From Bacteroidota bacterium (GTDB lineage: Bacteria; Bacteroidota; Ignavibacteria; UBA10030), in assembly GCA_040882165.1 (NCBI GenBank), contig JBBEBV010000008.1, positions 1 through 48,883 on the forward strand: DNA of 48,883 bases, written 5' to 3'. The position numbers and the translations under genes are program-made. Each line of letters opens with the position of its first letter. Position 1 is the first letter of the stretch. The notes beneath the pieces were generated by a model. It saw only the letters and a list, made by a program, of their open reading frames with translations. It made no database searches and was not told where the DNA came from. Positions 7,801 to 41,976 of this stretch are shown in pieces.

Positions 7801-7807
7801 ATTCAGA

Positions 7808-8812: not shown

Positions 8813-8874
8813 CCATGATGCCCGTTCTCACGACAGGTCCATTTTACGGAGCGTACTACAAAAGGATATCGAGC

Positions 8875-24869: not shown

Positions 24870-24923
24870 TTCCATGGAGAACTCCTTCACCGATTGGATC
24901 CCGCGCTGGAAAAGGCGGAACCG

Positions 24924-24946
24924 GATTCTCCCAACGATTCTCCCAA
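24924..24946. repeat. direct repeat GATTCTCCCAA x2 with 12-bp period
   Basis: Read directly from the 132-nt gap upstream of the M20 gene (gGATTCTCCCAAcGATTCTCCCAAt). Confidence 0.8.
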
Positions 24947-25001
24947 TCCACTATTTCAGAATTTTGCCTTTGGGCGCGTAACAAGGAAACCAGGGAATAC
25001 G

Positions 25002-26126: not shown

Positions 26127-27076
26127 TCCTCGGACTGGACATCGGAGGTACGAAGACGGCTGTCGTCCTGGGAACGCGCGACGGTGCTATCCGGTGGCGC
26201 AAGGAATTTCCAACGGCGCCTCAACGTGGGTTTCAAAAGGTCTTTTCAGAACTCTCGAATGTTGCACGGGAAGCGCTTCACGGCGCCCCGAAACCCGTCG
26301 TCGCGATCAGCGTTTCGATCGGCGGTCCGCTTGATGTCGAGCGTGGCATCATCTACTCACCGCCGAATTTACCAGGGTGGGATGCCATCCCGCTGAAAGA
26401 GATGCTCGCCGGGGAGTTTTCACTCCCTGTATACGTTGAACACGACGGGAACGCTGGCGCTTTGGCTGAGTGGTATTTTGGAGCGGGGAAGGGATTTTCC
26501 CATGTGGTGTTTATTACAATGGGGACCGGCTTTGGTGCCGGATTGATTCTCAACGGTCGGCTGTATCGGGGCGCGAACGATCTGGCCGGCGAGATGGGCC
26601 ATATTCGTATAGCGGAAAACGGCCCGCTGTGTTATGGAAAATCAGGTTCCCTCGAAGGATTCGGAAGCGGGACCGGCATCATGAAACTTGCCCACCATCT
26701 TTTCCCGGGGAAATGGGACGCATCGGCAACAGTTGCAGATGTCTACCGATCATGGCAAGCGGGTTCACCCGAAGCGCGGCAGGTCTTTGAACAGTCAGGA
26801 TTTTGGCTTGGCCGCGGGCTCGCACTTTTGATCGATATGCTGAATCCTCAACGGATCATCCTGGGGGGACTCGGCATGCGGGTGAACAATGCTCTCATGC
26901 CTTTCGTGCAGGCTGTTGTTCGGGACGAGGCGCTTCCGGCGGCTGTGCGTGCGTGTGAGATCGTTCCCGCCGGTCTTGGAGAATCCATCGGAGATGTCGC
27001 TTCACTCTGCGCCGCTCTGGACCAGGGGGGTCTCGCTGTGTATAAATCAACTCAAGGAAAGGTAGACGGAAGATGA
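26123..27076 (+). CDS. ROK-family sugar kinase (no N-terminal HTH)
   Basis: 317 aa with a GTG start overlapping the upstream stop (GTGA). It has ILGLDIGGTKTAVVLG and EHDGNAGALAE. The usual CxCGxxGCxE zinc motif is degenerate here (LCYGKSGSLE). Confidence 0.8.
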   Translation: MILGLDIGGTKTAVVLGTRDGAIRWRKEFPTAPQRGFQKVFSELSNVAREALHGAPKPVVAISVSIGGPLDVERGIIYSPPNLPGWDAIPLKEMLAGEFSLPVYVEHDGNAGALAEWYFGAGKGFSHVVFITMGTGFGAGLILNGRLYRGANDLAGEMGHIRIAENGPLCYGKSGSLEGFGSGTGIMKLAHHLFPGKWDASATVADVYRSWQAGSPEARQVFEQSGFWLGRGLALLIDMLNPQRIILGGLGMRVNNALMPFVQAVVRDEALPAAVRACEIVPAGLGESIGDVASLCAALDQGGLAVYKSTQGKVDGR

Positions 27077-29313
27077 CCATCGTTCGAATGTTCATGCTCG
27101 TGTTGATCTGTTCCACCATGGTGAATGCCCAAAAGGCAATTTATCTTGAAGAAATAAGGAAGGCCGTGGAGAAGGGGTGGAGGGACCATCCCGCTTCGAT
27201 CGAACAATGGAAACGGACTCATGAACCGAATGTGCTCTGGGGCTATAACTCCCCGGGCGGTCCGATCTATCTTGCCGGCACGCTTTCTTTTATGTACGAA
27301 GAGACCGGGGAACGGATCTATGCAGAACGTACCGCGAAGCTCCTTGCAGAGTATGGAGATTTGCGGAACGTTCTTCCCAAGGGTTTCGAGAAAACACGCG
27401 CGGAATATGTCAACGGGGTTCCGGCCATCTCCAATTTCTTCATCATGCCCCCCTATATCCGTGCCTATTTGAGGATCAAGGACAGCGGGGTATTGGATGC
27501 AGAGATGAGGAAGAGGATCGAGGAGGATGTTTCAAAAAGCGCCGATTTTATCTTTCATTTTCCCGAATGGGGAACGCATAACCGGGCGATGCTGCGGGCC
27601 GAATGCCTGATCTATGCCTCCCTGGCCATGCCGAATCACCCGAGCGCAAAAAAATGGAAACAGATGGCCGAAACCATCGCTTCCGATAACCTGAAGCAAT
27701 GGGAGGTCGAGGATGCGACAGGCTATCATAGTGTCTGGCTGATGTCGCTATATTCTTACGCCGAAGCGGCTCAGGTAACAGAGCTCTTTCGTTCACCCCT
27801 GACGAAGTACTATCTCGACTATTTTGTCAGCCTGATCAGTCCGAATGGCACGGTGCCGGAGTTCGGTGATTCACGATGGTGGTCGGGTGTGGAAGGGTTA
27901 CGCTTTGTCGGTGTGTTTGAAAAAGGGGCGACCGTCTACAAGGATCCCGAGATGAAGTGGGCAGCTCAAACCACGCTCGAAACATTGAAGAAGGGGCGTG
28001 ATACTCTCGGTGTCGGAGAGGGATACTACCTATCCGATGCGTATCGCTGGACGGACGAGACGGTCGCCTCCAGGCGGCCAACCACGCTGAGCCGGGAGGT
28101 GCTGGAAGATATGATCGGAAAGAAAGTCGTGTTCCGGAACGGTTGGGATGAAGCGAGCACCTATCTCCTGCTGAACTATCGTGATGAAGGGGACGGAGGA
28201 TGGCTGTACCGGGAGTACCTGCGACAGACAATCTCCGTGGAAGAAGAAAAAATGCATCACGGCCATGCCGATGAAAACAACATCGGACTTCTCATGAGTA
28301 GAGGCTCGGTCCTGCTCACGGACGCGGATTACCGGAGCGACCTGCCGAGCGGCAAGTTTGGATCCTGGCGGCAGGACTATTTTCACAACCGGATCGTTGC
28401 GCGCAAGAACAAGCGCGACCAGAACCAATCGGTCCTGGAGTTTGTCCAGAATTCGGGAGCCTACCGCGCAGTTCGGACGATGAAAGTCGATTTTCTCAAC
28501 CTCCGGGAGGTCGATATGAGCCGCACGCGGTTGATCGACGACAACCTCGGTTACCAGTGGGACAGGATCATCACGTATGTAAAGGAAGACGACTTCTTTA
28601 TCGTCGTTGATGGGATCAAGGCTCTGAAGTCCGACTATTTCACCTTTACCAACTTCTGGCACACGAACAACCTGCTCGTCCGTGGGAAGGAGTACTTCGA
28701 TATCGCGACCGATTCCATCGGATCGTTCCGGTTTCCCACCCAACGGTCTCTCTTCGTTCATTTCCCGGAAACTTACGCGAAAACGTCCGGTGTTGAACCG
28801 ATCAGTCGTAACTGGCGGACCGAGCAGGCAATCTACCAAACCATCTCCAGCCAGTACAAGACGGGTGATACGGAAGTCTTCATAACAGTCCTGATTCCGC
28901 ACGATCGGAAGCAAAACCCGGAGGAGCTCCTTGGCAAAGTCAAAGTGCTGCCAGGAACCAATCCCTACGAAGCGGTCGGGCTGGAGATCGATCGTGGCGG
29001 AGCAAAATCGTACCTCGGCATCAAGATCGACCTTGAGAGCGAAATTGCGCGGGAGAACATCCGCCCGCGGTATCTCTATTCCCTCGGGAAAGCCGGGTAT
29101 GGTGATTTTGAAACCGATGCGCACTATTTCTTTGCGACCGTCTCCAGGAGCTCTGTCTCCTATTCCGCATCGAACGTGCTGAAAGTGCTCCACAAGGGGA
29201 AGACGCTGATGGAAGCTCTCCCCAATATGCATGGCCTCCAACTGGACGGAGCAGCTCCCCGGACGGCTGTCACGAAGTGGAGATATTGGGAGGATACAGT
29301 CCCCGTCAAATAA
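27073..29313 (+). CDS. secreted heparinase II/III-like polysaccharide lyase family protein
   Basis: 746 aa with an ATGA overlap to the upstream gene and the signal peptide MTIVRMFMLVLICSTMVNAQ. The HHGHADENNIGLL block is typical of the heparinase II/III C-terminal domain, and the N-terminal two thirds are helical. Confidence 0.65.
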   Translation: MTIVRMFMLVLICSTMVNAQKAIYLEEIRKAVEKGWRDHPASIEQWKRTHEPNVLWGYNSPGGPIYLAGTLSFMYEETGERIYAERTAKLLAEYGDLRNVLPKGFEKTRAEYVNGVPAISNFFIMPPYIRAYLRIKDSGVLDAEMRKRIEEDVSKSADFIFHFPEWGTHNRAMLRAECLIYASLAMPNHPSAKKWKQMAETIASDNLKQWEVEDATGYHSVWLMSLYSYAEAAQVTELFRSPLTKYYLDYFVSLISPNGTVPEFGDSRWWSGVEGLRFVGVFEKGATVYKDPEMKWAAQTTLETLKKGRDTLGVGEGYYLSDAYRWTDETVASRRPTTLSREVLEDMIGKKVVFRNGWDEASTYLLLNYRDEGDGGWLYREYLRQTISVEEEKMHHGHADENNIGLLMSRGSVLLTDADYRSDLPSGKFGSWRQDYFHNRIVARKNKRDQNQSVLEFVQNSGAYRAVRTMKVDFLNLREVDMSRTRLIDDNLGYQWDRIITYVKEDDFFIVVDGIKALKSDYFTFTNFWHTNNLLVRGKEYFDIATDSIGSFRFPTQRSLFVHFPETYAKTSGVEPISRNWRTEQAIYQTISSQYKTGDTEVFITVLIPHDRKQNPEELLGKVKVLPGTNPYEAVGLEIDRGGAKSYLGIKIDLESEIARENIRPRYLYSLGKAGYGDFETDAHYFFATVSRSSVSYSASNVLKVLHKGKTLMEALPNMHGLQLDGAAPRTAVTKWRYWEDTVPVK

Positions 29314-29366
29314 GTGCTACAAGAGCACCCATCCATTCATAATCACTGATGTGCAGGCAGGAGTCC

Positions 29367-30194
29367 ATGAACCTCGGAAAACAATTACGTTTGCGAAGAA
29401 TCTGGAAACATCCACGCGCAGTTATTATTCCATTCGATCACGGTCAGTACGGGGGGGTGCCGGACGGTCTTCAAGACCCCCGTCGTCTCACGGAGCGGAT
29501 AGCTTCAACCCCTGCCGATGCTGTACTGGTGACGCCCGGTGTTCTTGCGACAATCGTTCCGGCGCTGGGTGACCTTGGTGTGGTGCTGAGGCTGGATGGC
29601 GGATTTACGAAGTATACTCCCGTCGCGGGGGACTATGAGCCGGTGGTGAGCCCCGGGTACGCCGCGTCTCTCGGTGTGGATGCCGGAATTGTCTTCAGCT
29701 TTGTCGGTACGGCATTCGACGCGCAATCGCTCGCGCGACTGGGCCGGACCGTCGAGGCCGCAAATCGGTGCGGCCTGCCCTTGATCTCGGAGGTCCTGCC
29801 GCCGAGTCTGCTCAACAATCACTTTGAGCGGGAGATCTTCAGCGTGAAGGCAAAAGGGGGAACCATCGCAGAGGAAACGCTCAACGTCTCGCGCATCGCC
29901 GCAGAGCATGGGGCCGATATCGTCAAGACACGCTATCCCGGAAGTCCACGCGATCTTCGATCTGTTGTCGATACGTGCGGCGCGAAAGTCATTGTCGCCG
30001 GCGGGCCCCAATCGGGGAAAGGCGATCAGGCACTGCTCCAGTTTGCCCATGACTGTGTCGGGGGAAATGCAGCGGGCATCGTATTCGGCAGGAACGTCTG
30101 GCAACATCCAAAGATGGAAAAACTGATTGCTGCTCTCTGTGCCATTGTCCATGAGGATGAGACGGTTCTCAAAGCTTTGAAACTTCTGAAATAA
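29367..30194 (+). CDS. class I aldolase of the DhnA/FbaB type, second copy
   Basis: The ORF track starts at 29349. The ATG at 29367 follows AGGAG and aligns better with the copy at 14479. It has IPFDHG, DIVKTRYPG and GIVFGRNVWQH. Confidence 0.8.
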   Translation: MNLGKQLRLRRIWKHPRAVIIPFDHGQYGGVPDGLQDPRRLTERIASTPADAVLVTPGVLATIVPALGDLGVVLRLDGGFTKYTPVAGDYEPVVSPGYAASLGVDAGIVFSFVGTAFDAQSLARLGRTVEAANRCGLPLISEVLPPSLLNNHFEREIFSVKAKGGTIAEETLNVSRIAAEHGADIVKTRYPGSPRDLRSVVDTCGAKVIVAGGPQSGKGDQALLQFAHDCVGGNAAGIVFGRNVWQHPKMEKLIAALCAIVHEDETVLKALKLLK

Positions 30195-30226: not shown

Positions 30227-31156
30227 ATGATCACCACCGTCACCTTGAACCCGATGCTTGACAAAACCGTGCGCATTGATACGTTTGTGCGCGGCGCGAT
30301 ACACAGAGCAACGGCCATGGAATGCATCGCCGGAGGCAAGGGAGTCAACGTCGCCCGGCAACTGAAATTCCTCGGCGTTCAATCCGTGGCAACGGGATTC
30401 ATGGGGGGCGAGGTGGGGTCCAAAGTTCTGGACCTGCTGCGGCAGGAAGGGATCGAAGCCGATTTTGTTCAGGCCGATGTTCCAACGCGCGAAGGGGTGA
30501 CCTATCTCGAAGCCGATGGAACCTCCACGGCGGTCTTTGAGCCCGCCCGGCAAGTGCCCATCGAACGGGTTCACGAGCTCGGTAAAAAATTCCACACCCT
30601 TTTCCCAAAGAGTTCCTGGATTGTTTGCAGCGGGAGCTCTCCCGGCTCGGAAGCGGACGACTTGTATTATGAAGCGGTCCTCGCTGCGCACAAGTACGGC
30701 GTCATGAGCGTTCTTGATTCGTACGGCGAACCGTTCAGGCTTGCCTTGCGGGCTGTTCCTTCGCTGGTGAAACCGAACAAGGAGGAATTTGAACAAACCT
30801 TCGGCGGTTCCCTGCAAAGCGATGATGACTTTGTGAAGGCGCTCAATCATCTTCTGGGCATGGGGATTCAGTATGCGATCGTCACTGACGGTGCACAGCC
30901 ATGTTACGCAGCGATCCGGGGACACTATTGGAAGATGACGCCCCCTGCCGTTCGGACCGTGAACCCGATTGGGTCCGGCGATGCGATGGTGGCGGGTATC
31001 GTGTACGGCTTCAACCAGGGGTGGAAGTTCCAGCGATGCGTTTCGTTCGGAATTGCGGCCGGGGCTGCAAATGCGCAAAAGTGGGGGGTGGCAAATTCCG
31101 GAATCCAGGAAATCCTTGACCTCGAGCACCAGATTCGTGCTCAAAGACTCCATTAA
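30227..31156 (+). CDS. 1-phosphofructokinase / tagatose-6-phosphate kinase (FruK/LacC branch of PfkB)
   Basis: 309 aa with MITTVTLNPMLDKT, GGKGVNVAR and the C-terminal GSGDAMVAG. Confidence 0.8.
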   Translation: MITTVTLNPMLDKTVRIDTFVRGAIHRATAMECIAGGKGVNVARQLKFLGVQSVATGFMGGEVGSKVLDLLRQEGIEADFVQADVPTREGVTYLEADGTSTAVFEPARQVPIERVHELGKKFHTLFPKSSWIVCSGSSPGSEADDLYYEAVLAAHKYGVMSVLDSYGEPFRLALRAVPSLVKPNKEEFEQTFGGSLQSDDDFVKALNHLLGMGIQYAIVTDGAQPCYAAIRGHYWKMTPPAVRTVNPIGSGDAMVAGIVYGFNQGWKFQRCVSFGIAAGAANAQKWGVANSGIQEILDLEHQIRAQRLH

Positions 31157-31215: not shown

Positions 31216-32259
31216 ATGCCACTAATGAATAACAGACTCAACGATGCAATGGACTGCCGCGCGTCCGACCGCGTTCCATTTGTCCCGGCGATCTATGAAC
31301 ACAAAGCCTGGTTTGTTCACTCCACTCCATCCATTGTATGCCGGGATGTGAAGTTGTTCACGGAAGCGTTGCTCGCAGAATATGAGTCCATCCATCCCGA
31401 TGCTCTCACCGTTGGCATCGATGTCTACAACGTCGAGGCCGAAGCTGTCGGCTGTCAAGTACGGTACTACGGAGAGGGGGAGACTTCCGTCCCTGCAATC
31501 GAGCCCGATACGGTCTTGTATCACGGTGATGATGATATGGGGAGCCTTCGCATGCCCGATCCTTCAAAGGATGGCAGGATGCCGGTGAATGTCGAGGTGG
31601 CGAAGAATATTGTGCAGGCGCTGGGAAAAGAGATACCGGTGCGGGGAGCGGTGTCCGGACCGTTTTCCATGGCGGCCAGCCTCGTCGGACCGGAGAATTT
31701 TCTCATGCTGACCATCACCCAGCCGGCCCTCGTCCATGAAGTCATGAAATTCTGCGCCGAAGTGATTCAACAGTATGCAACCGCGTTCGTCAGAATCGGT
31801 TGCGGCATTGTGATTTTTGACTCACAGTCCTCCCCCGCCTTGATTTCGCCGGACATGTATCGTGACTTTGTTCTGAAGCCGACCCAGGAACTCATTCGTT
31901 CACTCCAAATGCTTGGCGTGAAAAACGTCCCCTTGATCGTCGGTGGAAATACCACGGACATTCTCGAACCGTACCTGGAAACCGGGGGCAACAATATTCT
32001 CTGTGACTATCCTGCAGATGCCGGTGAATTTCTTTTACGATGCTCGGCAGCACGCCGGGCATTCCGCAGAAACATTGATTCATCCGATTTCATCACAACG
32101 ACTCCGGACAAGCTCCGCGCGCGAACAAGAGCTTGCCTGGACGAAGGAAAAGGATATCCCGGATTCATACTAGGGACGGCCGTTGCTCCGTTTGGAACAC
32201 CGTTGGAACACCTGCTGGCCATCAAGACGGCAGTTGAGGAATATTCGAAGAAAGGCTGA
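31216..32259 (+). CDS. uroporphyrinogen decarboxylase (URO-D) family protein, MtaA/CmuA-like methyltransferase, zinc motif apparently absent
   Basis: 347 aa. The family-typical N-terminus is present (RLNDAMDCRASDRVPFVPAIY), as is the TIM-barrel length. Where MT2 enzymes have H-x-C-G-N, this protein reads LIVGGNTT. Confidence 0.65.
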   Translation: MPLMNNRLNDAMDCRASDRVPFVPAIYEHKAWFVHSTPSIVCRDVKLFTEALLAEYESIHPDALTVGIDVYNVEAEAVGCQVRYYGEGETSVPAIEPDTVLYHGDDDMGSLRMPDPSKDGRMPVNVEVAKNIVQALGKEIPVRGAVSGPFSMAASLVGPENFLMLTITQPALVHEVMKFCAEVIQQYATAFVRIGCGIVIFDSQSSPALISPDMYRDFVLKPTQELIRSLQMLGVKNVPLIVGGNTTDILEPYLETGGNNILCDYPADAGEFLLRCSAARRAFRRNIDSSDFITTTPDKLRARTRACLDEGKGYPGFILGTAVAPFGTPLEHLLAIKTAVEEYSKKG

Positions 32260-32273
32260 GCCTGAACGAACCC

Positions 32274-33398
32274 ATGACTGCAAGGAATCGAATTCTGACA
32301 GCGATGCGACGCGGCACGCCCGACCGGGTGCCGGTCATGCCCGATATTTCCAACATGGTTCCGGCCCGTCGCACGGGGAAACCGTTTTGGGACATCTACC
32401 TCCATGAAAATCCATCACTCGACGAGGCGTATGTGGACGCGGTACGCTATTTCGGCATGGATGGCTGGTACATTTATGATAACGCAACCATGTACGAGGA
32501 ACCCGCATGGCAGAAGAAAATCATCGAATCGTTGAACGATGAAGTGCATGTTCGGCGATGGATCGAGACGCCGTTTGGTGAGTTGGAGGAAATTGTTTGT
32601 TACCCGAACAACGATCCTCCCTGGTCGCAAACCGGAATCATCAAAGATATTGCGCAGGATTTTCCGAAACTCAAGTGGTATATGGAGCAAAAGGGACTGG
32701 ATGGGCTCACGAAGAACAGGCAAAGGATCGGCGATCTCGGCATTTACGGTGTTGCCATCGAAACCTTCATGGGATTCTGGGTCTGGGCGAGGGACGGGGG
32801 GTCGATGCAGGCCATACAGGATTTCTTCCAACATCCCGGGGAGATGCAACGGATTAAAGAGTTCTACCTCGCATTCGTCGAGAAGGCGGCAAAACGCATT
32901 CTGCAGGACCGGCCCGACGAGATCCTCCTCGCCGGATCGTCATCTTCCCTGAGCCTGAGCTCCCCGAGGATCTATAAAGAGTTCGATTTGCCGGTAATTC
33001 AGCTCGTTTCTTCACTCTGCAAGGAGGCAGACGTTATTTGTCACCAGCATACCTGCGGACGTTCGAGACAGATTGTGGAGATCAATTATTTCAATTCCGA
33101 TGTGAACGTGATGGAGCCATTGGAGCGCCCACCGGGGGGAGACGTCGATCTGGCCGAAGTGAAGAGGAAGTTTGGCGACAAATTCTGTCTCAAGGGGAAC
33201 GTCAATACCTTTGAAACCATGCTCAACGGTTCCGTGCAGGATGTCGAGCGAGAGGCAAAAGCTTGCATCGATGCGGCAGCCCACGGCGGGGGATTCATCC
33301 TTGCCACCGGCGATCAATGTGGAAGGGATACACCCGACGAAAACCTCTTTGCCCTTGTTGAGGTGGCAAAAACTTATGGACGCTACCCCTTGAAGTAA
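32274..33398 (+). CDS. URO-D family methylcobamide methyltransferase (MtaA/MtbA-like) with H-x-C zinc motif
   Basis: 374 aa with RILTAMRRGTPDRVPVMPD at the N-terminus. It has CHQHTCG (H-x-C) and a later ATGDQCG cysteine, as in MT2-type enzymes. Confidence 0.7.
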   Translation: MTARNRILTAMRRGTPDRVPVMPDISNMVPARRTGKPFWDIYLHENPSLDEAYVDAVRYFGMDGWYIYDNATMYEEPAWQKKIIESLNDEVHVRRWIETPFGELEEIVCYPNNDPPWSQTGIIKDIAQDFPKLKWYMEQKGLDGLTKNRQRIGDLGIYGVAIETFMGFWVWARDGGSMQAIQDFFQHPGEMQRIKEFYLAFVEKAAKRILQDRPDEILLAGSSSSLSLSSPRIYKEFDLPVIQLVSSLCKEADVICHQHTCGRSRQIVEINYFNSDVNVMEPLERPPGGDVDLAEVKRKFGDKFCLKGNVNTFETMLNGSVQDVEREAKACIDAAAHGGGFILATGDQCGRDTPDENLFALVEVAKTYGRYPLK

Positions 33399-33428
33399 TC
33401 ACTCGATGATTCAAAAAAGGAACAAACG

Positions 33429-34064
33429 ATGAAAGAATTACAGGAACTCGCCGAACAACTTATCAACGGGTACTCCGACCATGTCGCGCGATTGACACGG
33501 GAACTGCTGGACAAAGGGGCCACGCCGCAAACCATCCTGAACGACGGTCTCGTTGCAGGGATGACCGTCGTAGGTGAAAGAATGCGATCGGGAGAAATGT
33601 ACCTCCCTGAGGTGCTGCAATCCGCCAGCGCTATGCACGCATCGTTGAAGATCCTGAAACCACACCTGGTGAGAGATGGGGTCGAATCACGCGGGAAGAT
33701 CCTGATGGGAACGGTGAAAGGGGATATGCACGATATCGGCAAGAACCTGGTGGGCATCATGCTCGAGGGGGCGGGGTTCGAGATCGTCGATCTCGGGTTA
33801 AATGTTCAACCCCAGAAATTCGTAGAGGCGATTCAGACGCACAAGCCGGCGATCCTCGGCCTCTCGGCCATGCTGACCACGACCATGCTGCACATGAAGA
33901 CCACCATCGATGCCATTACGGTTGCCGGGGTACGTGCCAACGTGAAAATTCTTGTAGGGGGAGCCCCCGTCAGTCAGAAATTTGCGGATGAGGTGGGAGC
34001 GGATGCCTATGCCCGTGACGCCGTCAAAGCCGTCGATAAAGTCAAAGAATTGCTCGCCGCCTGA
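33429..34064 (+). CDS. mtaC: corrinoid (B12)-binding protein, MtaC/MtbC-like
   Basis: 211 aa with an N-terminal helical cap followed by a Rossmann B12 domain. The domain carries DxHxxG (GDMHDIGKN), SxL (GLSAMLTT) and GG (ILVGGAP) motifs. Confidence 0.85.
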   Translation: MKELQELAEQLINGYSDHVARLTRELLDKGATPQTILNDGLVAGMTVVGERMRSGEMYLPEVLQSASAMHASLKILKPHLVRDGVESRGKILMGTVKGDMHDIGKNLVGIMLEGAGFEIVDLGLNVQPQKFVEAIQTHKPAILGLSAMLTTTMLHMKTTIDAITVAGVRANVKILVGGAPVSQKFADEVGADAYARDAVKAVDKVKELLAA

Positions 34065-34072
34065 GGACATCC

Positions 34073-35461
34073 ATGCCGACGCAGGAAGCCGGGAAACCAT
34101 ACTCAACGCTGGCCCTCAGGAGTCCGGAGGAGTTGATGTTCGGTCGTGTGCCGAAACCGGTTTCTTGCGGCTATGGCCTGCAGCTGGGTGCCGGAGCCGT
34201 GTACCCGGAATTGAATTTCACGCTCCCCACCATGTTGATCGAGGAGGAAAGCTGGAGTTCCATCGTCAACCAGTATGACGAAATGGGAGAGATGATCCGT
34301 CGGACCGCGAAGCGTCTGCATCTTCCGGGGTTGATGATCGAGTTTGAATTGCTTCCTCCCATGACGGAACGGCCTGAGTGGGGGGCCCAGATCACGCGGG
34401 TTCTCGACAGCCATCTCAAGAAAGCCCATGAAGTCGACGGCCTGCCGTGCGCTCTACGCGTCACCCCGACCGATATCCGCGATGCCATTCGTCCGCCCCT
34501 GTTGCGGACCGGCAACGAATGGGAAACGTTGCTGACTTCGTTTGAAGCATGTGCCCTGGCCGGAGCGCACGTTCTCTCCATTGAATCGGTGGGAGGCAAG
34601 GAGCTGAACGATGAGGCGATGATGTATGGCGACGTGGAAGGGGTGATGTTTGCACTTGGTGTCCTTGCCCCGCGGGATATGCAGTTTCTCTGGAAGGAAA
34701 TCGTTTCGATTTGTACGGCGCACGGAGTTGTGCCCGGCGGGGATTCCGCCTGTGGGTTTGCCAATACGGCCATGCAGTTGTCGTCGCAGGGAATGCTCCC
34801 CGAAGTGTTTGCCGCAATGGTCCGGGGGGCAAGCGCCGTCCGAAGCCTTGTTGCGTACGAGTGTGGTGCTTTCGGGCCCTCGAAGGATTGTGCGTACGAA
34901 GGACCGATTCTCAAAGCCATCACCGGTGCGCCGATTGCGATGGAGGGGAAGTCGGCAAGCTGTGCCCATTTCAGTCCCGTCGGCAATGTGGCGGCGGCGA
35001 TGTGCGACCTCTGGAGCAACGAATCCGTGCAAAATGTCCGCCTTTTGTCCGGTCCAGCCCCGGAAGTGTTCCTGGAGCTCCTGACGTACGACTGCCGGTT
35101 GTTCAATGCCGCCCTTTCAACCGGATCGGAACGGACCTATCAACGGATGCTGGTCGAGTCGGATATTCATCTCAGTGCGCAGGCTCTCGTACTGTCCCCT
35201 GAATCCACGATCCGCATTGCCTCGGCGATCGTGCGGGAGCGTACGCACTATCGGCAGACAATCGCAGCGGCATTGGAAGCGCTCCATGTCATTCGTGATG
35301 CTGTTCGGGACAAAACCCTGGCTCTCTCGCCGAAAGAACACCAATGGCTTGACAAAATCGAGTCTGCCCTGGAGGCGCTCCCGGCCGGGGAGGGGGGGAT
35401 CATGGACTCGATGATCGATCGCTACGGTCACCTCTTCACTCCGTCAAGCTACGGTCTCTGA
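34073..35461 (+). CDS. mtaB: methanol:corrinoid methyltransferase MtaB homologue
   Basis: 462 aa. Long colinear blocks match Methanosarcina MtaB as I recall it: SIESVGGKE, GDSACGFANTAMQ, SLVAYECGAFGPSKDCAYEGPILKAITGAPIAMEGKSASCAHFSPVGN, CDLWSNESV and LTYDCRLFNAAL. Confidence 0.85.
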   Translation: MPTQEAGKPYSTLALRSPEELMFGRVPKPVSCGYGLQLGAGAVYPELNFTLPTMLIEEESWSSIVNQYDEMGEMIRRTAKRLHLPGLMIEFELLPPMTERPEWGAQITRVLDSHLKKAHEVDGLPCALRVTPTDIRDAIRPPLLRTGNEWETLLTSFEACALAGAHVLSIESVGGKELNDEAMMYGDVEGVMFALGVLAPRDMQFLWKEIVSICTAHGVVPGGDSACGFANTAMQLSSQGMLPEVFAAMVRGASAVRSLVAYECGAFGPSKDCAYEGPILKAITGAPIAMEGKSASCAHFSPVGNVAAAMCDLWSNESVQNVRLLSGPAPEVFLELLTYDCRLFNAALSTGSERTYQRMLVESDIHLSAQALVLSPESTIRIASAIVRERTHYRQTIAAALEALHVIRDAVRDKTLALSPKEHQWLDKIESALEALPAGEGGIMDSMIDRYGHLFTPSSYGL

Positions 35462-35544
35462 CAAGAATCTTGAAGGTCTAAAGCGAACCAAACTTTTTGT
35501 AAATTCCCTTCATCACTCACCACACTACAGGATTGAGGTTTAGA

Positions 35545-37941
35545 ATGTCCACATTACGCGACGCCCTTTCCCAAGTCCGTACGATTCAATATACTTCTCC
35601 CAACCTTCTGGTAGAGCAAACGGTTGCCCGGGAGCTCCAGGCAGCTTTCAGTCCGGGGGCGGCCATCAAACGCTCTGCGGGATTGAACGCCCCCAGAGGC
35701 ACCCTCCGCATTGCGGTCGTCCCGGACAACAAAGAATGGAAAACAATCCATCGCTCGTTGGCCGGTGGGAAAGATTGGATCATGGCGCGGGTGTCCGAAG
35801 GAGGTGGGGTGGAAGTGCTTGCCTCCAAACCGCACCTCCTTTATTATTTGTGTACGTTTGTGTCAGGCGACTGGGCCGCCATGCCGCTTTCGGTCTTTGC
35901 GGCGGGGAAGATCGTGGTTCCGACATTCCCGAACATGCGGCCGGCGTATGATGTGTTCCTCACCCAACACGGGCGGACCGTCCGCAATTTCGATCGAGAC
36001 GAGTACGTGCGCAATCTTGCACGGCTCGGTTTCTCACACGTTGAAGTCAACGGCCTCGCGATGCCCGTCCCGTTCGAACGGGGCCCGCAGGGAGAATTGC
36101 TTCACCGGTTCTACACTTATTGCCCGTCGCTGGATCAGTTTGTCACCAGCAAGCTGAACAATGGATACTATGATGACGATTATCTCCAGGCAAACCTGAA
36201 CTTTCTGAAGACGAACGCGGAACTGGCGGAGAAGTATGGTCTCGCCCCGGGACTCGTTTGCTTCGAGCCGCGGTCGGTACCGGACAATCTTCTCCAACGC
36301 TACCCCATGCTGCGGGGCGCTCGTGTGGACCATCCCATCCGAAGCTGGCATCCGCGTTTTAACCTCTCCATCGCGCATCCGGTTGTTCAACAACACTATG
36401 CTGAGCTCATGGAGAACCTGCTGCGGGAAGTGCCGACCATCGACTACATCTCCATCTGGTCGAACGACAGCGGCGCGGGGTTCGAATATACGAACTCCCT
36501 CTACGTTGGACGCAACGGCGGCGGCTATGTGATCCGGGAATGGAAAGGGGATAAGGAGATTGCCGAATCGGCGGCGAACAACCTGATGCGGTACATGCGC
36601 ATTCTGCGAGACGCCGGGAGAAAGGTCAACCCGCGCTTTCGGACTCTGATCCGGCTGGAGCCGTTTTGGGCGGAACATGACTATATCTGGGCGCAGCTGG
36701 GCGACGGCCTGGATGTGGAGGTTTCCTCTCTTCTTACGAAAGGCTGGAAGCTCGCGTACAAACATCCGAAATACAAAGAAGCCCGCGAGATCCATGGCAC
36801 GGCACTCCACAACCGTTTCGCCGATGCCGAGAAGCCGTTGATCAGCGAGCTGAAGAAAAAGGGATCGCGTGCCGATGTCTATTTTAATCCGGGCCTCGGG
36901 TGGAACCACGAACCGCTGCTGGGAATTACGTTTCCATGGCTGGTGTTCGACAAAATCAAGGACATGGCAAAAGTTGGGGTAGAGACCCCATGCTACACCA
37001 GCGGTACGATTCCCCCCTCCTTCGCGCCGTACAATATTAACCAGGAGCTCGTTCGTGCGTTTCAGGCCGATAAAAATCTCGATCTGCAGGCGTTCCTCCT
37101 TGCCAAGGCGAAGGAATGGATCGGCTCGCGGCTGGCAGCCGATCTCGTCAAAGTGTGGAAACACTCCGACGAGGCGCTTCGTTCGCATCCCATACCGATC
37201 TGGATTTATTCATCGTGGGGAGTTTGGTACCGTTTGTTGACCCGTCCGATCGTCCCGAACGTCGAGAAAATTTCGGAGGAGGACCGGGCGTATTACGAGA
37301 AATTCCTGTTGGCCACATCGCATAACCGCTGCCGTGTTGACTTCCGGTACGACGTGGGGTTCGATCTTGTCGACCCGCAGCATGCCCACACATGCATCAG
37401 GCTTATGAACCGGAATCTGTTCCCGGAGATTGAAGCCGCACTGAAATTGTTGAAAAAGATGCGGGCGACTGCAACGAACAATGTTGAACGTGCCGTCGTG
37501 GAAGACCAGTACGATCGCATGCGGGCGCTGTTTTGCTGGTACCGAACCCAGCGTAACGTCACCGCCTGGGTCGCCGGTGTGCATACCTACCTTGAAACAA
37601 CCGACAAGCGGAAGCGCCGGGAGTCACGCGCGATGCTCAAGGAAATGGTCCTTGATGAAATTGAGAACGCGAAGGACCTGCTCGATCTGTGGGAAACCTC
37701 GAAGACCAACTGGATGATCGTCTCCGGCGTCGGCGAGACAACGTTTATTTATTATAAGAACTTCGGGGAGCAGGTAAAACGGAAGATCCAGTTGATGAAA
37801 GGGCGGGAGAACGACGAACCGTACGTCGATCCGGATTTCCAGTGGCGCGTCCCCGGGTTTGAGGATTATCTCTACAAGGAAACATCACAGCCGGTACCCA
37901 GGGGCCGTAAGAAAGCAGACGGCAGCTTCGGTGTCAGTTGA
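35545..37941 (+). CDS. hypothetical cytoplasmic protein (798 aa), possible TIM-barrel glycosidase-like core, family not recognised
   Basis: The ORF track starts at the TTG at 35533, and the first ATG is at 35545. There is no signal peptide. The central region (VRNLARLGFSHVEVNGLA, LVCFEPRS, ISIWSNDSGAGFEY) suggests alternating beta/alpha structure, and the C-terminal third is helical. Confidence 0.5.
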   Translation: MSTLRDALSQVRTIQYTSPNLLVEQTVARELQAAFSPGAAIKRSAGLNAPRGTLRIAVVPDNKEWKTIHRSLAGGKDWIMARVSEGGGVEVLASKPHLLYYLCTFVSGDWAAMPLSVFAAGKIVVPTFPNMRPAYDVFLTQHGRTVRNFDRDEYVRNLARLGFSHVEVNGLAMPVPFERGPQGELLHRFYTYCPSLDQFVTSKLNNGYYDDDYLQANLNFLKTNAELAEKYGLAPGLVCFEPRSVPDNLLQRYPMLRGARVDHPIRSWHPRFNLSIAHPVVQQHYAELMENLLREVPTIDYISIWSNDSGAGFEYTNSLYVGRNGGGYVIREWKGDKEIAESAANNLMRYMRILRDAGRKVNPRFRTLIRLEPFWAEHDYIWAQLGDGLDVEVSSLLTKGWKLAYKHPKYKEAREIHGTALHNRFADAEKPLISELKKKGSRADVYFNPGLGWNHEPLLGITFPWLVFDKIKDMAKVGVETPCYTSGTIPPSFAPYNINQELVRAFQADKNLDLQAFLLAKAKEWIGSRLAADLVKVWKHSDEALRSHPIPIWIYSSWGVWYRLLTRPIVPNVEKISEEDRAYYEKFLLATSHNRCRVDFRYDVGFDLVDPQHAHTCIRLMNRNLFPEIEAALKLLKKMRATATNNVERAVVEDQYDRMRALFCWYRTQRNVTAWVAGVHTYLETTDKRKRRESRAMLKEMVLDEIENAKDLLDLWETSKTNWMIVSGVGETTFIYYKNFGEQVKRKIQLMKGRENDEPYVDPDFQWRVPGFEDYLYKETSQPVPRGRKKADGSFGVS

Positions 37942-37999: not shown

Positions 38000-39151
38000 A
38001 TGAAGACCATCCTTCTTGCCCCGGATTCCTTCAAAGGCTCTCTCACAGCGCATGAAGCTGTGGAGGCCATGGAACTTGGCGTTCTGGCGATCACCCCGGA
38101 CGCTCATATTATCCGCCACCCGGTCTCCGACGGAGGCGAGGGGCTGGTCCAGGTACTCTCCCAGGCAATGGGAGGAACGATCCGTCACAGCTTCGTTCAC
38201 GGACCGCTTCCCGGTCAAAAGGTAAAGGCCCGGTGGGCGCTCTCCACAGACGGATCGACAGCCATGCTGGAAATGGCGGAAGCCGCGGGACTCTCGCTCG
38301 TGCCGGTCGATCGACGCGATCCGAAGATCACAACAACATACGGTGTCGGGGAACTTCTTCGTGCGGCGCTTGATGGCGGTGCGCGCTCGATCATCCTCGG
38401 TATCGGGGGGAGCGGGACGAACGACGGCGGTGCAGGATTGGCGGAGGCCCTTGGAGTGAAGCTGCTCGACGGTGGTGGACACCCCCTGCAACAAGGAGGC
38501 GCAGCGCTTCAACAACTTTCCAGCATCGATATTAGTGGGATGGATGGAAGATTGAAGAATGTTTCGCTGACCGTTGCGTGCGATGTCCATAATACCCTCT
38601 GCGGAGAGGAGGGGGCCAGTGCGGTCTACGGTCCCCAAAAAGGAGCGACGGCGGAGGATGTACAGCTTCTCGATTCGGCGCTCCATCATTACGGCGAATG
38701 TCTTCGTACCGTCCTGCATGTCGATGTCTTTTCGATTCCCGGCGGTGGAGCGGCGGGGGGATTGGGAGCCGGACTGGTCGCCTTCTGCGGTGCGAAGCTG
38801 AGGCCAGGGATTGATGTTGTGTTGGATGCCACACGATTCGATGAAATTCTCCGCTCGGCCGACCTTGTCATAACGGGAGAAGGGAGGATCGATGAGCAGG
38901 TTCAGTTTGGAAAGGCTCTCGCCGGGGTCATCGGCCGATCCCGACGAGCAGGGATTCCTGTTGCGGCCGTTGTCGGCGCGCTTCAGGGGGAACGAAACAG
39001 GTTTGTGAACAGCGACTTCCTGGTCGATCTGGAAACCCTCGTCGATGGCTCCACCACCTCGCACGATGCCATGCGCCACGCTGCCGAACTCCTCACAGCA
39101 AAGACCGGCGTGCTCCTCCGGCGAATCCTCCGCCTGCACCATAGCCCTTGA
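38000..39151 (+). CDS. glycerate kinase (GlxK/GarK family)
   Basis: 383 aa with the hallmark N-terminus MKTILLAPDSFKGSLTA, plus GIGGSGTNDGGAG and VITGEGRID. Confidence 0.9.
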   Translation: MKTILLAPDSFKGSLTAHEAVEAMELGVLAITPDAHIIRHPVSDGGEGLVQVLSQAMGGTIRHSFVHGPLPGQKVKARWALSTDGSTAMLEMAEAAGLSLVPVDRRDPKITTTYGVGELLRAALDGGARSIILGIGGSGTNDGGAGLAEALGVKLLDGGGHPLQQGGAALQQLSSIDISGMDGRLKNVSLTVACDVHNTLCGEEGASAVYGPQKGATAEDVQLLDSALHHYGECLRTVLHVDVFSIPGGGAAGGLGAGLVAFCGAKLRPGIDVVLDATRFDEILRSADLVITGEGRIDEQVQFGKALAGVIGRSRRAGIPVAAVVGALQGERNRFVNSDFLVDLETLVDGSTTSHDAMRHAAELLTAKTGVLLRRILRLHHSP

Positions 39152-39211: not shown

Positions 39212-40129
39212 TTGACGACGCGCCCCCGCTTTGCCGATCTCGCAACCGTTAGCTTTATGACCCTTGTGTGGGGATTTTCGTGGCCCGTCACGATCGTCGG
39301 TCTCCGGTACTGCGACCCGATGTTGCTTGCAAGCCTGCGATGCGTTCTTGGCGGATCGCTGATCTATCTCTGGATGTTGCGCAAGCCGGAGCGGGAGCGG
39401 TATGACCGGAAGGGACTTCAAACTGCGCTGGTGGTGGGCTCATTCTGGGTCGGTATCCCGACGGCCCTCTCGGTATGGGCGCTCCAGTACATCGGTGGAG
39501 GCCTTGGCGCCATCCTGCAGAGCACCGTTCCTTTCTTCATTGCGCTCTTTGCACATTTCTATCTCGGCCAGAACCAGTTGAATGTGGGAAAAATCGCAGG
39601 GATGGTTCTTGGTTTTATCGGAATCATTGTGTTATTTTCCGACGATCCATTGGATGCGGAGAACGCTTGGGCGCTGGCCGGCGGACTTGCAGTGGTGCTC
39701 AGCGCGGTCTCCATCGGCTTCGCACAATCGTATTCGCTCAGGCATTTCAAGGGAAAGGACAACACCTCCTTTAATATGTATCTTCAGCTGTTTGGCGGAC
39801 TCGTCATCCTGCCGTTCGCATTCTTTGGGGGCTTGCCCCGGTTTGAGACCAGCACTGAGCTGTTTGGAGTCTTGTTCTTCCTCTCCCTGTTCGCCACCGC
39901 CATTCCGTTTACGATGTACTTTGAGCTGTTCCGACGGGTCGATTTCGTCGTTCTCTCGATGATGGCGTACGTGATCCCGGTGGTCGCGGTGGTGGCGGGC
40001 ATCGTCTGGCTCGGTGAGCGAATGTCCCTGATTGATGCAGCAGGTGCGGTGCTCGTCATCGTGGGTGTTCTGATTGCAACACAGTTCGATTTTCTCCGTT
40101 CAAAATTGTTTCCCCGATTAATCTCATAA
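39212..40129 (+). CDS. EamA/DMT-family transporter
   Basis: 305 aa from the TTG at 39212 (an alternative ATG lies at 39257). It has about ten hydrophobic segments in two similar halves. Confidence 0.75.
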   Translation: MTTRPRFADLATVSFMTLVWGFSWPVTIVGLRYCDPMLLASLRCVLGGSLIYLWMLRKPERERYDRKGLQTALVVGSFWVGIPTALSVWALQYIGGGLGAILQSTVPFFIALFAHFYLGQNQLNVGKIAGMVLGFIGIIVLFSDDPLDAENAWALAGGLAVVLSAVSIGFAQSYSLRHFKGKDNTSFNMYLQLFGGLVILPFAFFGGLPRFETSTELFGVLFFLSLFATAIPFTMYFELFRRVDFVVLSMMAYVIPVVAVVAGIVWLGERMSLIDAAGAVLVIVGVLIATQFDFLRSKLFPRLIS

Positions 40130-40138
40130 AGGTCACTC

Positions 40139-41050
40139 ATGATTCGCATCGGTTTGGTCGATCTCGACACATCGCATCCGAAAGTCTTCACCAAAATTCT
40201 CAACTCCCTGCCCGACGTCAAAGTAACAGCCCTCTGGGATGGCCGCGATGTCTGGCCGGAGGGGTACGATGAACGGTTTGCCAAAGAGAATGACATCCCG
40301 CATGTCTGTAAAAAACTCGAGGACATGCTGGAACACGTCGATGCCGCGATGATCCATGGAACAAACTGGGACAAGCATGTGGACAAGGCCTTTCCCTTCG
40401 TCGAGGCGAAGAAACCGGTGTTGATCGATAAACCGGTTGTGGGGAAGGTGAAGGACATTTACGCACTCCTGGAACTCCAGGCGGCACATAAAACCCCCAT
40501 TTACGGCGGCTCGGCGCTCCGGTTTGCACAGGAGGTCGCGATCTTCCGATCGGAAGCCGCCGCATTCGGCCAGATCGTCTCTGCCGTCGCGACCGGCCCG
40601 GGCGATTTCTTCAGTTACGGCATTCATACGATGGAAATGGCACAGGGGGTGCTTGGCACCGGCGCGAACTACGTCGAGTATATCGCCGAGAACAAAACGG
40701 CGATTTTCTCGATTACGTACCACAACGGCTTTGTGCTGATTCTCCAGCTCCATCAGCCCTTTTATGAGTGGACGTTGAATCTGTATACCACCACGGGTCA
40801 GCATTCCATGAAAGTTGATGCCGCGCGCTTGTACGAACCGTTCCTCCATAAGTTCGTCGAATTGATCAAGGGGAATACGATTCAGTATTCGCTTGAGGAT
40901 CCCCTGGAGGCCGTGAAGATCCACATTGCTGCAAAGCTTTCGCGCCAGCATGGCGGAAAGATTTATCTGTCGGAGGTTCCGTCGGAGGAAGGATTCGATG
41001 GGACTGCTTTTGCGGCGGAATATGCCGCGGCAAAACGCCGGGGTGGATAG
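40139..41050 (+). CDS. Gfo/Idh/MocA-like protein with degenerate dinucleotide-binding loop
   Basis: 303 aa. It reads MIRIGLVDLDTSHP where GxGxxG is expected, and VLIDKP resembles the EKP motif. The stop abuts the next start (TAGATG). Confidence 0.5.
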   Translation: MIRIGLVDLDTSHPKVFTKILNSLPDVKVTALWDGRDVWPEGYDERFAKENDIPHVCKKLEDMLEHVDAAMIHGTNWDKHVDKAFPFVEAKKPVLIDKPVVGKVKDIYALLELQAAHKTPIYGGSALRFAQEVAIFRSEAAAFGQIVSAVATGPGDFFSYGIHTMEMAQGVLGTGANYVEYIAENKTAIFSITYHNGFVLILQLHQPFYEWTLNLYTTTGQHSMKVDAARLYEPFLHKFVELIKGNTIQYSLEDPLEAVKIHIAAKLSRQHGGKIYLSEVPSEEGFDGTAFAAEYAAAKRRGG

Positions 41051-41944: not shown

Positions 41945-41976
41945 GCGTACATTCACAGTAGAACCAGACCCCATCG

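Follow-up and report, generated by a model that had tools for sequence, protein, structure and literature searches.

A corrinoid methyl-transfer cassette linked to a conserved glycan-catabolic gene array in a Bacteroidota bacterium

A stretch of 48,883 nt from a Bacteroidota bacterium (lineage Ignavibacteria, UBA10030; assembly GCA_040882165.1, contig JBBEBV010000008.1; hereafter, the window) forms a single co-directional array of 48.9 kb, with genes on the + strand throughout. Four of these genes, at positions 31216-35461, encode two URO-D family proteins (UROD1 and UROD2), a corrinoid protein of the MtaC type, and an MtaB homologue, and were judged from their sequences to constitute a genuine corrinoid methyl-transfer module. 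Comparison with related loci indicated that the module is an accessory, removable cassette of a conserved array of sugar and glycan genes. We propose that it is the methyl-handling cassette of an array directed at an acidic, probably methyl-decorated glycan, in which MtaB would load MtaC with methyl groups from glycan-derived methanol, and a URO-D protein would unload them, probably to a thiol; the probability of this reading is put at roughly 45%. An original prediction, made from the window alone, had placed the module in the oxygen-independent removal or salvage of methyl groups from methylated sugars, or from the methanol that they release.

Two samples of related loci were used. The protein collection contained 6431 MtaB homologues, and the species-representative genome collection contained 582 stretches with an MtaB relative, from which 80 loci were kept; the window proteins were compared against 85 MtaB-anchored loci. 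The second sample consisted of nine loci anchored on the 798-aa orphan protein encoded next to MtaB (35545-37941), hence unselected for Mta genes, bringing the total to 94 loci. Absences of domains from the window refer to scans of + strand open reading frames (ORFs) of at least 200 aa with Pfam and NCBIfam profiles.

All four genes lie on the + strand, separated by 14, 30, and 8 nt. UROD1 (31216-32259) matches the Pfam URO-D profile over its full length (E = 1e-45), and UROD2 (32274-33398) matches it over residues 178-368 only, the C-terminal half (E = 5.5e-22). The corrinoid protein (33429-34064) has both a B12-binding_2 cap (E = 2.3e-20) and a Rossmann B12-binding domain (E = 2.2e-28), with the motifs GDMHDIG (DxHxxG), SAML (SxL), and LVGGAP (GG); its score against TIGR02370 (194 bits) is slightly below the cut-off of 215.3. 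MtaB (34073-35461) aligns with profile positions 2-460 of the 460 in PF12176 (E = 2.1e-156; 521.8 bits against a cut-off of 25). The spacing of 8-30 nt, the family assignments, the three corrinoid motifs, and the presence of a clear MtaB homologue were thus as first predicted. The prediction of two URO-D/MtaA-like proteins stood as far as the family is concerned, but they are not equivalent copies of MtaA: UROD1 and UROD2 gave no BLASTP match to each other, and the zinc motif is present only in UROD2.

The module and the window have the same G+C content (0.556). A foreign insertion was considered and rejected, given the matching G+C of the flanks, the similar identities of cassette and flanking genes to their relatives, and a deletion scar in one related locus (see below). 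The gaps within the module and to the adjoining sugar genes range from 8 to 83 nt on one strand, which suggests co-transcription of the module with these genes. No cobalamin riboswitch or any other Rfam element was matched in the window. A scan for sigma-70 promoters and terminators gave no more sites than shuffled sequences and was uninformative, the promoter type of the host probably lying outside the scan.

The substrate of MtaB was approached through its active-site motifs. The protein aligns end to end with Methanosarcina barkeri MtaB (2I2X; E = 1.2e-87; 36% identity), and the zinc ligands Glu164, Cys220, and Cys269 of the latter correspond to E171, C227, and C273 of the window protein, which are invariant among 16 homologues. 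The NCBIfam equivalog for methanogen MtaB, NF040651, was not reached (424.5 bits against 720), and the sequence places the window protein in a bacterial clade rather than among the methanogen orthologues. The MtaB family is small, with ~20 full-length clusters at 50% identity; one is represented by MtaB of the acetogen Eubacterium maltosivorans, and another holds that of Methanobrevibacter smithii. In a 20-sequence alignment, the E. maltosivorans protein, at 44% identity overall, shares the stretch GDSACGFANTAM identically with the window MtaB, as well as GPSKDCAYEGPxLKAITGxPIAMEGKSA (identical except at the two x positions), WSNES, and PExNFTLP. M. barkeri MtaB diverges more at the active-site stretches (GDTDCAQANTAM, GPGKDCGYEN). 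The near identity of these motifs with those of the acetogen enzyme suggests that the window MtaB is most likely a methanol:corrinoid methyltransferase, and that its re-tooling for a bulky sugar is unlikely. The notion that MtaB was the sugar-demethylating part of the module was therefore abandoned.

The two URO-D proteins are of different character. The nearest solved relative of UROD1 is M. mazei MtaA (4AY7; E = 1.2e-19; 25.8% identity over 275 aa), to which UROD2 shows 27.7% identity over 159 aa. Against the profile TIGR01463 (mtaA_cmuA; cut-off 235.4), UROD1 scored 108.9 bits (E = 3e-31) and UROD2 68 bits, and neither protein reached the curated MtaA cut-offs (TIGR01463, NF040654). In UROD1, the zinc ligands HxC...C are replaced by LIVGGN and LGTAV, as they are in 16 of 16 orthologues. 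UROD2 has QHTCG and GDQCG, which align with LHICG and PGCG of MtaA. This conservation of an MtaA-type zinc motif suggests a thiol acceptor; UROD2 is most readily interpreted as a methyl-corrinoid:thiol methyltransferase that depends on zinc, most likely acting on a thiol such as homocysteine. The role of UROD1 appears ambiguous: it may unload the corrinoid protein in an atypical way, or it may be a second enzyme that loads it. A third type, URO-D3, in which LHSCG is kept and the last Cys is gone, was found in relatives, so that three distinct URO-D subfamilies are embedded in the related arrays. The acidobacterial URO-D partners carry the complete MtaA-type HxC...C motif. UROD2 was found in only some relatives (L002-4, L010, L022, L028, and L093). 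A search of PDB sequences for a solved O-demethylase methyltransferase I (MT I), for comparison with UROD1 and UROD2, returned only MtaA and HemE entries.

The linkage of the module to carbohydrate genes was followed across the related loci. Among the 80 kept loci, MtaB identity is 64-75% in those labelled Bacteroidota, Ignavibacteria, Kryptoniota, and KSB1, and ~58-63% in those labelled Acidobacteriota, NC10, Dehalococcoidia, and one Roseiarcus. About 20 loci are collinear with the window, in the order GH3-DHOdh-Fer4-cyclase-M20-ROK-lyase-like-(aldolase)-PfkB-UROD1-MtaC-MtaB-orphan-GlyK-EamA-GFO-NTPtr-GalK (GH, glycoside hydrolase; GlyK, glycerate kinase; NTPtr, nucleotidyltransferase; GalK, galactokinase-family kinase), with protein identities of 55-76% for cassette and flanking genes alike. 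A rearranged form, M20-MtaB-ROK-URO-D-lyase-like-aldolase-PfkB-UROD1-orphan, is present in L020, L026, L028, L030, and L090. In a third, Kryptoniota-type arrangement (L007, L008, L011, L014, and L038), UROD1-MtaC-MtaB stands between homologues of two window orphans (1579-3966 and 35545-37941), in a locus of otherwise different content that includes a PorV-like protein, other proteins with twin-arginine translocation (TAT) signals, and an SSF transporter. Lone MtaB genes adjoin GH97 (L024) or lie near GH78 (L025). The Acidobacteriota have a unit of their own, MtaC-MtaB-DUF1638-RACo-URO-D, and a census of 90 ORFs flanking the acidobacterial MtaB genes gave MFS_1 (six members) and Sugar_tr (five) as the most-matched families. 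Because the linkage recurs in ~20 loci, in three arrangements, and with one deletion scar, the association of module and carbohydrate genes across arrangements and phyla appears from these gene orders not to be fortuitous. Loss of synteny in relatives, which the original prediction had named as grounds for regarding the adjacency as fortuitous, was not found; synteny was kept in the ~20 loci and through two rearrangements.

The orphan-anchored loci, in which Mta genes were scored within 10 kb, revealed how variable the cassette is. One locus has the full UROD1-MtaC-MtaB set (L092), and another has MtaB, two URO-D genes, and a second corrinoid cluster (L090). UROD1 and MtaC occur without MtaB in L086, UROD1 with URO-D3 in L094, UROD2 alone in L093, and URO-D3 alone in L088 and L089, the latter with a lone MtaB 1.7 Mb off on the same contig (L024). 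No Mta-related genes were found within 10 kb in L087 and L091. URO-D is thus present in seven of the nine loci, MtaC in three, and MtaB in two. The L091 orphan is the closest beyond the window's own species group (78% identity), and in this locus the whole array is present and the cassette absent. Between PfkB and the orphan gene (L091:9727-10001), a 42-aa ORF, MNKRLLNACEGKVFPEPNFTLPTMMLDEVRNGYLFLPESYGL, is a remnant of MtaB: it matches MtaB residues 41-58 (tblastn, 67% identity, E = 9e-6), and its PExNFTLP region runs straight into an MtaB-like C-terminal SYGL end. The remnant indicates that the cassette was once present in L091 and was then deleted. In L087, a lyase-fold gene is followed by two tandem copies of the orphan (5006-12325) in a region without Mta, PfkB, or glycerate kinase genes; ~7 kb downstream are genes for a phage-type integrase and a relaxase-like protein.

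The probable target of the array was deduced from two proteins that are not sequence members of any known carbohydrate-active enzyme (CAZy) family, and for which AlphaFold2 (AF2) models were matched by Foldseek against the PDB. The first is a 746-aa protein (27073-29313, + strand) with a signal-peptide-like N-terminus and a weak Hepar_II_III_N match. Its model (pLDDT 81.2, pTM 0.84) consists of an alpha/alpha toroid and a beta-sandwich, and its top 45 structural matches are all uronate lyases, led by polysaccharide lyase (PL) family PL39 (6jp4; E = 1.2e-19, TM 0.61), and followed by PL17, PL12, PL15, PL21, PL40, and PL8; the strings HNR, YH, and HNR are invariant among its homologues. The second is the cytoplasmic 798-aa orphan (35545-37941, + strand), which matched no Pfam or NCBIfam profile and no PDB chain by sequence, even at E = 10, and is not a sequence member of GH138, GH115, or GH67. 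It has 1743 homologues, and among the matches listed (120) all are annotated "hypothetical protein". Its model (pLDDT 81.9, pTM 0.86) contains an N-terminal alpha/beta domain, a TIM barrel, and a helical bundle. The best structural match was GH138 BT0997 (6hzf; E = 1.5e-15, TM 0.50-0.53), at 10-12% identity in the structural alignments, followed by GH20, GH89, GH115, and GH67, with the GH20, GH89, and GH84 scores similar to that of 6hzf. BT0997 is an alpha-galacturonidase acting on rhamnogalacturonan II (RG-II), and GH115 is a 4-O-methyl-alpha-glucuronidase family. Together, the predicted lyase fold and the possibly GH138/GH115/GH67-like fold suggest that the array probably degrades a uronic-acid-containing, acidic glycan. 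Uronic polymers are usually decorated with methyl esters and 4-O-methyl ethers.

The remaining neighbours were largely as first described, with a heparinase-like protein, an aldolase, and a PfkB kinase upstream, and an orphan, a glycerate kinase, and hexose and hexosamine genes downstream, all on the + strand and assigned by Pfam and NCBIfam. The upstream block (21136-26126) encodes a secreted GH3 protein, a DHO_dh-like protein, a ferredoxin, a cyclase/arylformamidase-like protein, and an M20 deacylase of the ArgE/DapE type, in an order kept in L005, L009, L013, L015, L021, L034, L086, and L091-L093. It is followed by a ROK-family sugar kinase (26123-27076; Pfam ROK, E = 2.5e-55; present in 20 of the 85 MtaB-anchored loci) and, beyond the lyase-fold gene, by a class I aldolase of the DhnA/DeoC type (29349-30194; Pfam DeoC, E = 2.2e-20, and NCBIfam DhnA-type families) and a PfkB ketohexose-phosphate kinase of the 1-phosphofructokinase/tagatose-6-phosphate kinase family (30227-31156; TIGR03168, 268.9 bits against 216.4). 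Downstream of the orphan are a glycerate kinase (38000-39151; Pfam, E = 3e-132; TIGR00045, 436.7 against a cut-off of 168) and a block (39212-43437) encoding an EamA transporter, a GFO-type oxidoreductase, a sugar-1-phosphate nucleotidyltransferase, and a galactokinase-family GHMP kinase, whose order is kept in L002-5, L009, L012, L013, L015, L016, L034, L035, L091, and L092. Further downstream are a NagK-like kinase, cupin-type glucose-6-phosphate and mannose-6-phosphate isomerases, and an MFS sugar porter; far upstream there is a second PfkB/aldolase pair.

On this basis, a pathway can be proposed in which the secreted lyase-fold enzyme (27073-29313) and other secreted proteins would cut a uronic-acid polymer, as its fold suggests. 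The imported fragments would be trimmed by the cytoplasmic orphan, and the sugars would pass to the kinase, aldolase, and glycerate kinase, as expected of their families. Methyl esters or O-methyl ethers of the glycan would give rise to intracellular methanol, from which MtaB would transfer the methyl group onto Co(I)-MtaC. Methyl-Co(III)-MtaC would then be unloaded by a URO-D partner, with UROD2 methylating a thiol such as homocysteine, and an ATP-dependent reductive activator would be encoded outside the window. The catalytic steps and the acceptor are ones that we infer.

Several observations weigh against the proposed pathway. No enzyme that would release methanol was found in the window: there is no family 8 carbohydrate esterase (CE8) and no alpha/beta-hydrolase esterase. 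The window also has no cobamide genes, which adds to the missing activator and riboswitch. UROD1, which is the usual URO-D beside MtaC-MtaB in relatives, is without the thiol-methylase zinc site, and UROD2 is missing in most relatives. The persistence of URO-D in seven of the nine orphan-anchored arrays, when MtaB or MtaC lies within 10 kb in only two or three, is odd for a mere unloader. The demand for methionine would be small relative to a catabolic methyl flux. Finally, the methylation of the glycan is something that we infer, and the glycan itself is narrowed only to candidates. Those considered, none of which was settled on, were RG-II-like pectin, xylan or arabinogalactan bearing 4-O-methyl-glucuronate, and actinobacterial polymethylated polysaccharides and glycosylglycerates.

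The fate of the methyl group was examined through the acceptor and activator genes of the window and its relatives. RACo/RamA, Pterin_bind, MtrH, and S-methyl_trans domains were all absent from the scanned ORFs of the window, in agreement with the predicted lack of an activator and of a pterin-type methylase. Neither the tabulated genes of related loci nor the leading families among the acidobacterial neighbours included a folate methylase of the pterin-binding or MtrH type. Of the 85 MtaB-anchored loci, 24 have a RACo activator (Fer2, Raco_middle, and RACo_C_ter) next to MtaB, and most of these carry an Acidobacteriota label. The second corrinoid cluster of L090 (17435-22325, - strand), ~5-10 kb downstream of the orphan gene, encodes a URO-D protein with the full zinc motif, a 177-aa ORF, DUF1638, a homocysteine-binding S-methyl_trans protein that ends in a GGCCG zinc motif, a B12-binding protein, and another URO-D. 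By its gene content, it looks like a split acceptor module of the methionine-synthase type. In the Kryptoniota-type locus L008, a 339-aa core MetE-like protein (Meth_synt_2; 13796-14815) directly follows the orphan homologue and may be a methyl-corrinoid:homocysteine methyltransferase. The S-methyl_trans protein of L090 and the MetE-like protein of L008 point to homocysteine as the acceptor. Both the donor and the acceptor had originally been left open; for the acceptor, relatives now point to a thiol. Demethylation by MtgBCD of Ruegeria also shares parts with methionine synthesis (PMC12478193).

The missing methanol-releasing enzyme, the zinc-less UROD1, and the persistence of URO-D lend weight to the main rival, a different division of labour in which the glycan-specific role would fall to the URO-D proteins and above all to UROD1. 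They would act as methyl-ether:corrinoid methyltransferases (MT I enzymes like OdmB, VdmB, MtvB, and MtoB) that transfer the methyl group of an O-methyl sugar to Co(I)-MtaC. MtaB would then be a parallel entry for methanol, and MtaC would be unloaded either by UROD2 or by a homocysteine methylase whose gene lies elsewhere. Because the presence of URO-D in the glycan array varies less than that of MtaB or MtaC, the URO-D proteins are more plausible candidates for direct methyl-sugar demethylases than the latter two. The substrate-specific part would be expected to stay with the catabolic genes, as URO-D does in the orphan-anchored loci (7/9, against 3/9 for MtaC and 2/9 for MtaB), and a corrinoid protein (CoP) and MT II can be shared between systems (PMC13391211). 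The three URO-D subfamilies of the arrays resemble the paralogue sets of aromatic O-demethylases, the thiol-activating zinc ligands are lost in UROD1, and the UroD superfamily includes O-, S-, and halogen-demethylases as well as thiol methylases (PMC10418091). In the systems used for comparison, the unloading enzymes directed at folate or tetrahydromethanopterin (H4MPT) are not URO-D proteins, MtaA of acetogens being a 29.7-kDa protein (PMC13391211), and MtoA and Desulfitobacterium hafniense MtgA being MtrH-like (PMC8630106). On the other hand, the nearest solved relative of UROD1 is the unloading enzyme MtaA, the PDB matches include no O-demethylase MT I, and URO-D-MtaC-MtaB is the classical mtaA-C-B order. 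Cleavage of aliphatic sugar methyl ethers by a corrinoid-dependent enzyme is without precedent, and the data name no specific methyl sugar as a substrate. Direct corrinoid-dependent demethylation of sugars is possible, more plausibly through the URO-D proteins. A tentative version, less probable than the proposed pathway, has UROD1 as the main candidate, with UROD2 and URO-D3, as the first corrinoid-dependent, oxygen-independent methyl-sugar O-demethylases; these would load MtaC, MtaB would take up methanol from the same acidic glycan, with homocysteine or another thiol as the final methyl acceptor. Demethylation of methyl sugars by URO-D proteins would, if true, be a new reaction class for sugars.

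It is rather unlikely that the module has no tie to the glycan and is a general device for methanol assimilation or methionine synthesis (a split MetH fed by methanol) that was co-inherited in a long array. Bacterial mtaB genes are widespread and have been read as evidence of methanol use in metagenome-assembled genomes (MAGs) from peat and sediment (PMC10805028; PMC11264602). The genome collection has 582 stretches with a relative, the 80 kept loci carry the labels of several phyla, many loci have MtaC-MtaB-DUF1638-RACo-URO-D only, with varied neighbours, and the array occurs without the cassette in some relatives (L087, L091). However, the linkage survives two rearrangements and is also seen in another lineage, in a glycan locus that is not homologous. 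In other phyla, too, MtaB repeatedly has sugar transporters and glycosidases as neighbours, and the tight spacing on a single strand suggests co-transcription with the sugar genes.

A more remote alternative is net ether hydrolysis, in which a URO-D protein would load MtaC from a methyl sugar and MtaB, working in reverse, would transfer the methyl group to water, with methanol leaving and no organic acceptor required. This would explain both why neither the window nor any of the 94 loci has a folate methylase and why URO-D, MtaC, and MtaB recur as a trio. The hydrolysis of an aliphatic ether is, by estimate, approximately thermoneutral at standard conditions, and would be pulled by low methanol concentrations. 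In the enzymology of Methanosarcina, however, the transfer of the methyl group from methanol to cob(I)alamin releases ~20 kJ/mol, so that the reverse reaction needs very low methanol. The system would also be costly, with nothing conserved from the methyl group, and candidates for a thiol acceptor exist (UROD2, the L090 S-methyl_trans protein, and the L008 MetE-like protein). Least probable of all, and very unlikely, is that MtaB itself takes the methyl group directly from a methylated sugar: the genomic context and the distinctness of its clade (58-75% identity among members, against 44% to the Eubacterium and 36% to the M. barkeri enzyme) are outweighed by zinc-ligand and other active-site motifs that match those of E. 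maltosivorans MtaB exactly or almost exactly, and the literature search found no MtaB-family member with another substrate.

The module was compared with known corrinoid systems. It resembles the MtaABC systems of acetogens (Eubacterium limosum, E. callanderi, and E. maltosivorans, Acetobacterium woodii, and Moorella thermoacetica) in being bacterial, with an MtaB of 44-46% identity next to a single-domain corrinoid protein (PMC13391211). The acetogen MtaA is a 29.7-kDa folate methylase, whereas the window partners are URO-D-superfamily proteins of ~38-42 kDa; in addition, the window has no nearby activator or Wood-Ljungdahl genes, and the module belongs to a glycan array in a non-acetogen lineage. 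The Methanosarcina MtaABC system (MtaBC, 2I2X; MtaA, 4AY7) consists of the same three families, and the MtaB zinc ligands and the HxC...C motif of UROD2 are kept. It differs in that the window MtaB is only 36% identical, UROD1 is zinc-less, coenzyme M genes are absent from the window, and the host is bacterial. Aromatic O-demethylases (OdmABCD/Vdm of A. dehalogenans, MtvABC of Moorella, and MtoABCD of Methermicoccus) likewise combine a corrinoid protein and several UroD paralogues with substrate-specific genes (PMC10418091; PMC8630106). Their clusters, compared with UROD1 and UROD2 by description, have no MtaB, contain a pterin/MtrH-type MT II and a reductive activator of corrinoid enzymes (RACE), and act on aryl methyl ethers. 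By analogy with them, an ether-cleaving role for UROD1 is conceivable. The Type 1 mlp clusters of Kountz and Balskus 2023 (PMC10418091) also combine several MtaA-like URO-D proteins with a corrinoid protein, occur in non-methanogens, and include no folate methylase; their methyl acceptor or donor is suspected to be sulfur or selenium rather than folate. They differ in having a RACE gene, no described MtaB, and no glycan link, and in occurring mostly in anaerobic Firmicutes. MtgBCD of Ruegeria pomeroyi (PMC12478193) shares corrinoid-dependent demethylation, a methyl flow common with methionine synthesis, and a non-acetogen host with the window module, but its donor is glycine betaine, used through an MttB-family enzyme, and it has no MtaB, URO-D, or glycan context.

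The chemistry proposed for the window would be an oxygen-independent transfer of a methyl cation to cobalt. In marine Bacteroidetes, a gene for a cytochrome P450 demethylase reportedly lies within a polysaccharide-utilisation locus. The P450 6-O-methyl-D-galactose demethylase of these bacteria (PMC6292453) also demethylates a sugar, but it is oxygen-dependent, releases formaldehyde, and consists of unrelated proteins. The literature search returned only this oxygen-dependent P450 route for sugar O-demethylation (PMC6292453), as the original prediction had assumed, and no paper tying MtaB or URO-D methyltransferases to glycan loci or methyl sugars. The claim of novelty held in part: the glycan link is new, whereas bacterial mtaB genes outside the acetogens had already been described in peat and sediment MAGs (PMC10805028; PMC11264602). 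What is new here is the glycan link only, the mechanism being suggested by context.

The locus is a concrete, conserved, and widespread gene set that may offer a lead to the oxygen-free handling of sugar methyl groups. Methyl ethers and esters are common on plant, algal, and microbial glycans, and the fate of their methyl groups in anoxic sediments, peat, and soils bears on how much methanol reaches methanogens and acetogens, as well as on the completeness of glycan degradation. Primary degraders of glycans, such as the Ignavibacteria-like bacteria and the Acidobacteriota with their own version of the module, may keep the methyl groups instead of releasing methanol. The locus also offers three uncharacterised families of naturally variable presence, namely the 798-aa GH-like orphan, the lyase-fold protein, and the zinc-less URO-D.

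Additional features of the array were observed. The part of the upstream block at 22908-26126 (a DHO_dh/PreA-like protein, a 2x[4Fe-4S] ferredoxin at 23863-24255, the cyclase, and the M20 protein) is kept in nearly all related arrays, and resembles a set for reductive ring-opening and deacylation, unlike sugar catabolism. The enolase-superfamily gene at 19997-21100 falls in the low-GC/archaeal group of o-succinylbenzoate synthase (OSBS) and N-succinylamino-acid racemase (NSAR), which is odd, as the array has no menaquinone genes; together with the M20 deacylase, its product may process an N-acyl amino compound. A route to methanol through beta-elimination of a 3-O-methyl aldonate by this MR_MLE protein was considered and rejected, the protein scoring as OSBS/NSAR (269 bits, above the cut-off) and not as an acid-sugar dehydratase.

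A cytoplasmic GH38 protein (11760-14438) can be aligned from end to end with the mannosylglycerate hydrolase MngB, at a score of 543 bits that stays under the equivalog cut-off. This protein, the glycerate kinase, and the cupins resembling mannose-6-phosphate isomerase suggest a glycosyl-glycerate among the substrates. A GFO/IDH/MocA oxidoreductase (15440-16564) scored best against levoglucosan dehydrogenase (316 bits, below the cut-off), and also against glycoside 3-dehydrogenase families, which hints at an oxidation-elimination route for a glycoside in the array. The 430-aa DUF455/ferritin-like protein at 17735-19027, a putative di-iron protein, travels with GH38, FAH, and MR_MLE genes in L010, L017, L026, L028, L030, and L087; if it is a di-iron oxygenase, it would be an oxygen-dependent alternative for demethylation or hydroxylation.

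A 607-aa protein (45426-47249) with no Pfam or NCBIfam match is encoded between two cupin-type sugar-phosphate isomerases and the MFS sugar porter, and no homologue of it was found in the sampled stretches of the 85 MtaB-anchored loci. BLASTP detected no similarity among the large orphans at 1579-3966, 27073-29313, and 35533-37941, and a paralogous origin of the three was rejected. The region 3963-10695 holds three BNR/sortilin-like paralogues (~340-377 aa) in alternation with two ~650-aa orphans (4823-6784 and 8752-10695) that matched no family, and several of the proteins in this region have signal-peptide-like N-termini. The ORF at 4823-6784 overlaps its upstream neighbour by 187 nt, and its true start is probably further downstream.

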